13,648 nt of DNA, taken from UHGV virus genome UHGV-0343520; one strand, given 5' to 3'. The notes under the pieces are model-generated. The model did not search any database and was not told where the DNA came from. It saw only the letters and a list, made by a program, of their open reading frames with translations. The stretch comes from a virus. Positions 1,737-3,272 of the stretch are shown here, in pieces (the stretch's first letter is position 1; every line of letters starts with the position of its first letter). Made by a program: the position numbers and the translations under genes.

Positions 1737-1820
1737 TTTCTTACGTATAAACTGCTTCAATTTTGCTATGCTTCGCAAAGCTGTATCGCGAGGCGGATTG
1801 CAGACATGGACATCGTAAAA

Positions 1821-1843
1821 AAACCGCTTAATGCGGTTTTTTT
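1821..1843 (+). terminator. Rho-independent terminator downstream of Q (candidate tR'-like)
   Basis: Stem AAACCGC (1821-1827), loop TTAAT, stem GCGGTTT (1833-1839), then a T-run to 1843. An A-tract upstream means it could also terminate on the opposite strand. Confidence 0.7.
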
Positions 1844-2334
1844 ACGTCAGGAAAGCAGGGGAGAATGCTGCTAGTTGGGCAACTGGTCTTTCTGCTTGCT
1901 TAAGTGGAGAATTCGCATATTGGCGTGTAACTTGCGCAGAATACACATCTTTTACACGACTTGTTAGTTTATCCTGCGGCTTGTTATGATTATTTTAGCA
2001 TATTATCAGTTTTCACGGCCTGAATCTTGGTTAAGGCTCTTTATCCTGTTGTAATGACAGAAATAAATGGTGGATGGAATTCAGGACGGTTTGTTTTAAT
2101 AAAAAATGTAACTCAGGAAATAAGTTAACCTAACTGGAATCACTTTCGGATTATTAAGATTGAAGTGCCTTTTCTTCCTTTTTAGTATCGGTGCCAGTTC
2201 CGGGGAGAGCGGCTTTTATTGTTTGATTAGAGCTGACACGAAGAACTAATGTAGATCTGGTTTAGTCGGTATGGCTCATGATTTGAAATCTAATCAGTAG
2301 TTTATTTGTTCGAGCGCGATAGTTGGTACCATAT

Positions 2335-2380
2335 GCGGGTATCGTATAATGGCTATTACCTCAGCCTTCCAGGCTGATGA
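2335..2380 (+). pseudogene. tRNA-Gly(UCC)-like 5' fragment (acceptor 5' strand, D arm and anticodon arm only)
   Basis: GCGGGTATCGTATAATGGCTATTACCTCAGCCTTCCAGGCTGATGA matches, from memory, the first ~46 nt of E. coli glyT with two substitutions and retains a TCC anticodon. The following sequence has no T arm (no GGTTCGATTCC) and no complementary 3' acceptor strand, so it is not an intact tRNA. Confidence 0.4.
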
Positions 2381-2723
2381 CGTGGATGAGGCTCTGGTTT
2401 TGCAGCACTGGCGTTTTTTCGTGGGGAAAGGTCTCCTGAGCTCCTTTATCGCTACCCCAAATTATAACAGAGACCAGTTATAGTTTCGGTGCTGTGTTTT
2501 TTTTACAATATTGTGATAACACATTGCTGGCGGGAGTTTTGATATTCCTTGGCAGGGGATGATGATGCGTTATCCTGATGTCGTCAACTCATATAAAATG
2601 AGATGAGAGATCATCGCCGGGTGGTTTGTAATTCGCTGTTTAGCGGGACAATATGTTGTCTGATACAAGACACCCGACGCCTCAGATTACTATAATAAAG
2701 ACGAAGCATCCTTTGTATTGACC

Positions 2724-2749
2724 AACCGCCTGTTTAGGCGGTTCTTTTT
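2724..2749 (+). terminator. Rho-independent terminator
   Basis: Stem AACCGCCT (2724-2731), loop GTTT, stem AGGCGGTT (2736-2743), followed by CTTTTT. Confidence 0.7.
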
Positions 2750-3272
2750 GGGCTGGTTTATTGTATGCCAAATGATTATTAAAAAGGTTGTGTTAATAAC
2801 AAAATCCGAAATAATATGCCTGCATATTTTTATCTTGCTTATATTGTGCATAGCAGGCTCATCCCTGCAATCAAAACTGTATGATGAGTATTTTTTGTTT
2901 TCCTTTTTTCCAGTCATCTGATGATGACCTGCTTCTTTTTAATCCGGATCGACATCAGTTTTTTAAGATAATTCCTGCGAGTTATATGCACAAATGCCAC
3001 AAACTCCGCATTTTATGTGGTTGGGAGTTGCCGGGCGCGCAGTGAGTTTGCTAAGAAAACTCCTGCATGGTGAATCCCCCTGTGCGGTGGGGTGATACCA
3101 TTAACCTTTTCTGTCGCCGACAGGTATCACGAACATTTTGTTCACCGGGAGGCACCCGGCACCATGCACTTCAATAGATTCTCTCCACATTATGGATATT
3201 CTTTCAGAATATCCCACGCAGACTTTGTGTAAATGTTAACAAATGTGCGTTTTATTTGATCTGATTCGCTGT

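Follow-up and report, generated by a model that had tools for sequence, protein, structure and literature searches.

The DNA analyzed here is the UHGV virus genome UHGV-0343520 (13,648 nucleotides (nt); referred to as the window), which is a lambdoid prophage of the Rac-like type. The focus of this study is its interval 1737-3272, a leader of ~1.5-1.6 kb between a Q-like antiterminator gene and the first gene of a moron. An earlier description made from the letters (referred to as the sequence-only reading) had regarded this leader as poor in open reading frames (ORFs), as the site of Q-dependent antitermination, and as a hotspot of morons and non-coding RNA. The genes and elements around its Q-proximal end, and the lysis genes that follow, are as follows.

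308-907: DUF1367 gene.
907-1197: YbcO-family gene (PF07102).
1194-1736, plus strand: Q-like antiterminator gene of the DUF1133 family (GTG start, according to RefSeq relatives).
1725-1795, plus strand: conserved Q-linked non-coding core, putative pR'/qut (comparative).
1725-1728: A-tract in the core.
1733-1738: -35-like TTGATT, which includes the Q stop codon TGA.
1756-1761: invariant TTCAAT in the core.
1767-1772: TA(n)GCT in the core.
1769-1776/1788-1795: hairpin in the core.
1769-1843, plus strand: predicted short leader RNA, ~65-76 nt by choice of the -10 hexamer (5' hairpin, linker, and terminator).
1814-1846, bidirectional: intrinsic terminator, putative tR' (G-C stem 1824-1827/1833-1836; U-run 1837-1843).
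4501-5731, same strand as the leader: P21-type holin (from 4501), lysozyme, and Rz genes.

The protein encoded at 1194-1736 (the mechanical ORF starts from ATG 1074 and has 220 aa) matched DUF1133 in Pfam (3e-106) and PHROG 753, 'anti-termination protein Q-like' (7e-79), together with a sub-threshold match to Phage_antitermQ in Pfam. A direct sequence match to the solved Q protein of phage 21 (Q21) was rejected (E ~1 only), and a comparison of folds was required instead. In a Foldseek search of the Protein Data Bank with the AlphaFold model (20 homologues; pLDDT 66, medium confidence), hits 1-9 were all phage 21 Q (probability 1.0; TM 0.5-0.65), spanning the whole length of the model, and nothing else matched above noise. 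The gene lies after those for DUF1367 and the YbcO-family protein and before those for holin, lysozyme, and Rz, and DUF1133 was counted as Q, via HHpred, in a survey of Stx phages (PMC8136144). On the basis of the modelled fold, we accept this protein as a Q21-fold antiterminator. Three of the parts expected of a lambdoid Q cassette were found in the window: a Q-family gene directly upstream of the leader (its sequence similarity to Q21 being marginal), a terminator before the late genes, and, farther along the same strand, lysis genes.

The core was delimited by comparing 160 IMG/VR loci encoding relatives of the window's Q (76-100% identity), in which the homology tied to Q stopped at 1793-1795 across many differing downstream contexts. 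Among complete Escherichia coli (E. coli) genomes, 1690-1860 was matched in 765 of the 5426, and the partial matches listed stopped at query position 106, which is 1795 in the window. The core was found in 155 of the 160 loci; the other five consisted of three with too little downstream sequence, one ending just short of the expected core position, and one with a variant motif. The consensus of 29 unique variants was AAAA...cTTG..tTtTTA..catAAActG.TTcAAT...g.TA.GCTTCGcAaAGCTgtA.CGCgaGGcGaa (column 1 is 1725), with the 5-nt linker between TTCAAT and TAnGCT as the sole freely varying stretch; a GCTTC direct repeat is found at 1754 and 1770.

Three spacing classes were observed: the core adjoined the Q stop codon in 112 loci, was shifted by 81 nt in 32 (where it lay downstream of a different stop codon), and was located ~860-910 nt away in 11, in which an IsrK/ant module was inserted between Q and the core. 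The -35-like hexamer varied with the arrangement (TTGATT, containing the TGA stop codon, TTGTAT, and TTGCAA), and the A-tract was upstream in each. Since TTG was kept where no stop codon overlapped, it is retained without coding constraint. The nucleotide diversity of the 59 bp after the Q stop codon was 0.082, against 0.200 at the third positions of the last 99 Q codons (0.064 and 0.036 at the first and second positions, respectively), indicating purifying selection on the core.

The first of the two intrinsic terminators placed by the sequence-only reading (1821-1843) is real: AAAAAAACCGC-ttaat-GCGGTTTTTTT, forming a perfect A7-CCGC/GCGG-U7 hairpin that extends over 1814-1846 (-19.7 kcal/mol; z = -8.2). 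The minus strand folds about equally well, and the terminator is therefore bidirectional. A simple scanner missed this site, the U-run being absorbed into the stem, and a separate terminator scan detected it. An intrinsic terminator followed Q in 128/128 loci whose Q was at least 83% identical, starting at +78 to +89 and ending at +100 to +111 from the Q stop codon, and several of the stems were unrelated (CCGC/GCGG, CCACC/GGTGG, CCCGCC/GCGGG, and ACACGC/GCGTGT). In the class shifted by 81 nt, the terminator was at the same distance from the core. A transcript predicted to start at 1769 or 1779 would end at 1843, and 1762-1850 folds with -35.4 kcal/mol (z = -4.75). The isolated phage vB_EcoS-666R9 (ON470614) shares the window's Q, core, and terminator; only ~220 bp precede its first late ORF, and the holin, endolysin, Rz, and trkG genes come next.

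The published anatomy of a Q cassette consists of the Q gene, pR', a sigma-dependent pause element, a terminator, and late genes (bioRxiv 10.1101/651190), and short pR'-tR' RNAs are known from lambda (6S RNA), 21, 82, and Stx phages (StxS) (PMC7547250). Because the arrangement in the window matches this anatomy, the elements were read as pR'/qut, leader RNA, and tR'. We consider it likely, if well short of certain, that the interval is the late-operon leader of a Rac-like lambdoid prophage, and that its first part is a Q-dependent control cassette. The core, which starts inside the last Q codons, would act as pR' and as the site at which Q is loaded onto RNA polymerase. In the lysogen, transcription from the core would halt at 1814-1846, releasing an RNA of ~65-76 nt; with Q present, the polymerase would read through 1814-1846 and the later terminators at 2724-2749 and 4432-4457 to the P21-type lysis genes. 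The remaining 1.4 kb would be mosaic cargo and debris outside the switch: relics of tRNA-Thr and tRNA-Gly (transfer RNAs, tRNAs), a lineage-specific AT-rich spacer, an STnc100-family element, and a moron promoter. The sequence-only reading was borne out in its general view of the leader as a place where Q-dependent antitermination should act, with a Q21 fold upstream and P21-type lysis genes downstream; its candidate promoter, located elsewhere in the leader (see below), did not hold, and the read-through itself is what we infer from this arrangement.

In lambda, the -10 hexamer is followed by a pause element at +1 to +6. The window core, with its conserved A-tract, TTG, 17 bp, TTCAAT, and then TAnGCT, resembles this if TTCAAT is taken as the -10 and TAnGCT as a putative pause element near +1. 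The cassettes of lambda and phage 21 share with the window a Q gene directly followed by a conserved control element, a short leader (predicted in the window), an intrinsic terminator, and lysis genes on the same strand. As for the protein, the window's has the Q21 fold, but belongs to DUF1133 in Pfam and falls below the cut-off of the curated Q21 family. The window also differs in its non-canonical putative -10 and in the overlap of the -35-like hexamer with the Q stop codon; furthermore, pR' of phage 21 has a Q-binding element as well as a sigma-dependent pause element, whereas no Q-binding element is named in the window core.

Several points weigh against this assignment. A consensus scan for sigma-70 promoters on the plus strand of 1500-1960 found none, and no hexamer pair of the core passes it. 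TTCAAT has the right spacing from TTG, but carries T at -11 in place of the near-universal A. TATGCT, 5 nt after TTCAAT, is the better -10-like hexamer (it retains T-12, A-11, and T-7, and is preceded by TG(n) in the window), but has no -35 at the proper spacing. The promoter activity, start site, and RNA of the core are deduced from its sequence, the similarity of the DUF1133 protein to Q21 is marginal at the sequence level (E ~1) with a fold model of medium confidence, and AntQ of Gifsy-1 was reported to act on termination globally, and not at one site (PMC4825925).

The terminator at 1814-1846 could, moreover, serve only to end the early operon to which Q belongs. In this alternative, it closes the early-right (nin/Q) transcript, the core is a feature of the 3' untranslated region (UTR) of Q mRNA with a role, for example, in stability or translation, and the late promoter is located elsewhere. 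The terminator begins 78 nt after the Q stop codon, the hairpin at 1769-1795 may belong to a 3' UTR, and the failure of the scan to detect a consensus promoter points the same way. We nevertheless regard this explanation as unlikely: neither the sequence of the core nor the terminator that goes with it is lost where 81 nt or ~0.9 kb of inserted ant module separate the core from Q, which is unexpected for a 3' UTR element, and vB_EcoS-666R9 has nothing else conserved between Q and its late genes.

A second alternative is that the DUF1133 protein is a transcription activator resembling sigma region 4, which switches on the core as a weak promoter. Q21 itself resembles region 4 of extracytoplasmic function (ECF) sigma factors (bioRxiv 10.1101/651190), and the hexamers of the core are poor, as in activator-dependent promoters. 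On the other hand, a terminator is always found 45-75 nt after the core, which would be purposeless for a simple activator and is a hallmark of antitermination, and the model matches Q21 over its full length. AntQ of Gifsy-1, which is Q-like, occupies the same genomic position, and may belong to the same family, interferes with termination (PMC4825925). Simple activation is thus quite unlikely.

The other candidate for a late promoter lies within the leader segment 2457-3034, whose elements are listed below.

2616-2680, strand unspecified: closed multi-branch hairpin structure (from folding z-scores).
2667-2696, plus strand: promoter-like AAGACA-N18-TATAAT (10/12 match; TATAAT at 2691-2696).
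2724-2749, plus strand: second intrinsic terminator, conserved in the RSHH22 prophage with one stem mismatch.

This second terminator had also been placed by the sequence-only reading, and was confirmed: the stem has 8 pairs (5 G-C), the loop has 4 nt, and CTTTTTGG forms the tail. It could be proposed that TATAAT at 2691-2696 and this terminator are the real late promoter and terminator, giving a transcript of ~45 nt that is extended by Q. The promoter-like site matches at 10 of 12 positions, a clean terminator follows 28 nt past the -10, and both elements are conserved in a second prophage, RSHH22. However, the pair shows no linkage to this Q (461 genomes, against 765 with the Q-linked core) and is absent from vB_EcoS-666R9. 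In RSHH22, an unrelated prophage, it follows a differently annotated 'antitermination protein' gene; there, TATAAT and the downstream sequence are conserved, but the -35, which is on a mosaic boundary, is not, and the homology begins at 2668. A late promoter at this position is, therefore, very unlikely.

The 461 genomes refer to the whole of 2457-3034, which was chromosomal in all but two and had no match in sequenced phages; the copies were 97-99% identical, and covariation was therefore uninformative. The folding z-scores of 2600-2749 were -5.2 (minus strand) and -3.2 (plus strand), and the multi-branch structure directly precedes the conserved TATAAT and the second terminator. A 9-nt identity of TAATTCGCT (2628-2636) with the lambda 6S leader was discarded, the chance expectation being ~1 (1500 x 200 / 4^9). 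A link of 2668-2954 to the iraM gene that is its neighbour in RSHH22 was also rejected, with no homology to the region upstream of iraM. At ~2846, the two aligned E. coli relatives, APEC 102026 and 13E0767, carry a 9-bp tandem duplication (ATATTCTGC) that the window lacks.

The weakest alternative, that the leader apart from its terminators is non-functional debris and the conservation of the core reflects recent common descent, fits the 97-100% identity of most Rac-type copies and the dispensability of 1899-2456, but is highly improbable in view of the core being 2.4 times less diverse than the adjacent third codon positions across Q lineages that are 77-100% identical, and persisting through three rearrangements.

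The predicted leader RNA was compared with two known small RNAs. The 74-nt StxS, an Hfq-binding RNA with proven targets, arises through RNase E cleavage of a 258-nt primary transcript (PMC7547250). The predicted window RNA (~65-76 nt) is close to it in size, and in both a constitutive promoter would be terminated just downstream; however, there is no sequence similarity between them, the window RNA is a prediction, and the A-tract before its stem would pair with the U-tail, which may hide an Hfq site. The core may represent the pR'/qut, not described so far, of Q21-fold antiterminators in the DUF1133 branch, with an unusual promoter (either T at -11 or an extended -10 lacking a -35) and an RNA of ~65-76 nt that would be constitutive in the ~14% of the complete E. 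coli genomes examined that carry the core, and would act in trans on host mRNAs in the manner of StxS; this proposal is tentative, and as a whole doubtful.

IsrK of Gifsy-1 lies just downstream of the Q-like AntQ (PMC4825925), and is similar to the predicted window RNA in following a Q-like antiterminator and in consisting of a 5' hairpin, a linker, and a terminator. The isrK model (Rfam RF01394) aligned with the window over its full length, but with 21.6 bits (20.7 on the reverse strand) it stayed below the gathering score of 50. Membership of 1770-1843 in isrK was therefore rejected, and the near-equality of the two strands indicates that the score is driven by the terminator. A true isrK match (75.5 bits) was obtained at another locus (L152), behind a Q 86% identical to the window's, and begins 7 nt after a consensus promoter, TTGACT-N18-TATATT, whose -35 overlaps the Q stop codon. 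This promoter was considered as the homologue of the window promoter, and was withdrawn because it belongs to a mobile IsrK/c4/ant module.

The module (IsrK, a c4-like RNA, orf45, and the antirepressor gene) is 99% identical to that of the nin region of VT2-Sakai, which is located upstream of Q; its coordinates are ~2056-2950 in loci L149-L162 and 2501-2736 in L166. In those sister loci of L152 whose downstream flank is long enough, a core and terminator of the window type persist behind the module (L152 itself ends too soon). The IsrK/c4-like RNA/antirepressor unit is thus a mobile module, inserted in these loci between the DUF1133 Q and the core, and IsrK/ant differs from the window RNA in being such a separate unit. 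The persistence of the core behind it strengthens the case that the core must accompany Q. It is suggested that the Gifsy-type module was inserted between Q and the target of Q, and is not the late promoter itself; IsrK may thus not be a product of the late promoter, contrary to an earlier suggestion.

The useful product of this analysis is a putative comparative placement of pR', qut, and tR' for DUF1133-type Q proteins, which gives a testable location of the late promoter and Q-loading site for a widespread and unstudied group of Q. Such proteins occur in Rac-like, Gifsy-like, and some Stx prophages, and the linked core is carried by 765 of 5426 complete E. coli genomes. The understanding of lambdoid late control is unchanged by these findings.

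The leader downstream of the first terminator contains the following relics.

1899-2456, plus strand: ~558-bp segment missing from the usual Rac-type leader (alignment gap).
2251-2331, plus strand: decayed tRNA-Thr(UGU) pseudogene (aligned with the intact tRNA-Thr of locus L042).
2335-2381, plus strand: 5' 47 nt of tRNA-Gly(UCC), with the T arm and 3' acceptor end lost.

While 1844-1898 was common to all Rac-type copies, 1899-2456 was present in just 3 of the 5426 complete E. coli genomes (those covering at least 80% of the leader query). Its left junction, TCTGCTTGCT, resembles the continuous sequence of related phages, and a deletion in the majority Rac-type leader is therefore more likely than an insertion in the window. 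The leader query was matched in some part by 5419 of the 5426 genomes, which is probably explained by the tRNA-Gly fragment through the host glyT gene.

Within this segment, the direct repeat CTTGTTA (1960-1966 and 1980-1986) and TTGTTA-N18-TATGAT (1961-1990; 9/12 match), which the sequence-only reading had offered as a possible promoter, are both present. The repeat is at chance level (1500 x 30 / 4^7, or ~2-3 7-mer repeats within 30 bp per 1.5 kb), and so is the promoter-like match; 13 promoter-like sites were found in 1500-4000, compared with 6.7 +/- 2.9 in shuffles. The promoter-like site was rejected as pR' and the repeat as an operator, because both are at chance level in a segment that is missing from nearly all relatives.

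The tRNA-like fragment of the sequence-only reading is real, though not a gene: it comprises a decayed tRNA-Thr(UGU) and a tRNA-Gly(UCC) cut off after 47 nt. The former is identical to the intact tRNA-Thr in 50 of 81 alignment columns and has a 5-nt insertion in the anticodon arm; the latter is identical to the intact phage tRNA-Gly at 45 of 47 positions. ARAGORN found 0 tRNA genes, and the score with the Rfam tRNA model was 16.2 bits, below its gathering score of 29. In relatives that share this Q, intact tRNA-Thr(UGU) and tRNA-Gly(UCC) are located ~350 nt after Q. The relics occupy the same position as the clusters of tRNA genes that follow Q in lambdoid and Stx phages, but unlike these, the window genes are inactivated, Thr by substitutions and the insertion and Gly by truncation, and most Rac-type prophages have lost the whole tRNA-bearing segment. 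Phages of the mEp460 type have two tRNAs after their own Q (tRNA-Ile and tRNA-Arg in RefSeq; tRNA-Met(CAT) and tRNA-Arg(TCT) by ARAGORN).

At the distal end of the leader, and beyond it, the following elements were identified.

3035-3221, plus strand: STnc100-family element (Rfam RF02076), coinciding with a GC-rich island.
3273-3302, plus strand: moron promoter-like TTGAGC-N18-TATAAT (promoter scan).
3332-3760 and 3911-4306, plus strand: two genes with a TolA C-terminal domain, the moron cargo (Pfam TolA 2e-23 and 1e-14; PHROG 5772).
4432-4457, plus strand: intrinsic terminator at the end of the moron, shortly ahead of the holin gene (4501).

The GC-rich island of the sequence-only reading is real but modest (51-55% GC at 3000-3149, against 30-45% in the flanks). 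An Rfam search of the leader, a check suggested beforehand, identified it as STnc100 (E = 8e-18; 86.6 bits, with a gathering score of 47) over the full length of the model (positions 1-206), which places it in the family; other Rfam families at E up to 10 were generic hairpin-plus-terminator noise only. STnc100 is a multi-copy family of prophage small RNAs (sRNAs), with 11 copies in EDL933, one of which was seen on a Northern blot (PMC5331693); a copy is located 75 nt downstream of stx2B (PMC12370729), and the family is related to PasD (bioRxiv 10.64898/2026.05.13.724894). The window copy, full length and in a lambdoid late leader beside a moron, is similar in setting to that near stx2B. On the other hand, the other copies end in a U-run, whereas the 3' hairpin of the window copy (GGATATTC/GAATATCC) is followed by CACGCAG and has no U-tail, so that the 3' intrinsic terminator that releases a discrete sRNA is lacking. 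A separate, terminated RNA may, therefore, not arise from the window copy.

A mosaic breakpoint with mEp460-type phages is located at 3044, inside the 5' stem of STnc100, and the element may double as a recombination linker for moron exchange. In the RSHH22 prophage (locus L165, 2317-5793), five STnc100 copies are found in 8 kb, on both sides of a tolA-like gene.

From 3044 to 4400, including the promoter-like site and both tolA-like genes, mEp460 and E. coli strain 61 are 97% identical to the window, and in both the tolA-like module is behind a different Q. The unit at 3273-4457 is a classic moron, with a promoter-like site, cargo unrelated to phage growth, a terminator, and occurrence in several phage backgrounds. 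The description of the leader as a hotspot of morons and ncRNA thus agrees with the STnc100 element within it and the moron that follows. The tolA-like products might mimic or block TolA, for example, to exclude phage or colicin entry. By eye, the N-termini of both genes are lipoprotein-signal-like (..IIGC.. and ..VAGC..).

With regard to coding content, no ORF of 60 aa or more was found between 1737 and 2690, as the sequence-only reading had stated, the largest having 52 aa (1831-1989). The two ORFs within 2690-2921 that it had considered spurious, one of 75 aa on the minus strand (2690-2917) and one of 67 aa on the plus strand (2718-2921), are present, and both overlap with the second terminator; a further leader ORF of 67 aa is located at 3190-3393. 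The seven largest leader ORFs had no significant match to PHROG families, and RefSeq annotation in the two homologous regions inspected showed no feature in the leader. The possibility that small proteins are encoded in the leader was rejected on these grounds. The length of 1.5 kb is not a property of the system, since the usual Rac form is ~558 bp shorter and vB_EcoS-666R9 has only ~220 bp. The region is of an ordinary kind, and most of its length is dispensable; for annotation purposes, a long unannotated 'structured leader' here consists mostly of decay products and shuffled modules.

The assignment to the Rac-like type is illustrated by APEC 102026, a chicken E. coli isolate with a leader 99.3% identical to that of the window, which is flanked by racR, ydaS/T/U/V, and sieB, and, downstream, by essD-rrrD-Rz, trkG, ynaK, and terminase genes; the terminase subunit genes are annotated in RefSeq farther downstream on the same strand. 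In the window, trkG also follows Rz. In vB_EcoS-666R9 (locus L167, 5541-6059), trkG adjoins the lysis genes, and this Rac potassium transporter gene is thus cargo of a recoverable phage lineage, beyond the defective K-12 prophage. Farther downstream, 7464-9179 of the window is one ORF of 571 aa with a ParB N-terminal domain (PF02195) and a TET-associated glycosyltransferase domain (PF20691), a combination that hints at a function in DNA modification. According to RefSeq, its counterpart in strain 13E0767 consists of a ParB/Srx gene and a separate hypothetical protein, and the ParB/Srx gene ynaK of APEC 102026 is a truncated pseudogene.

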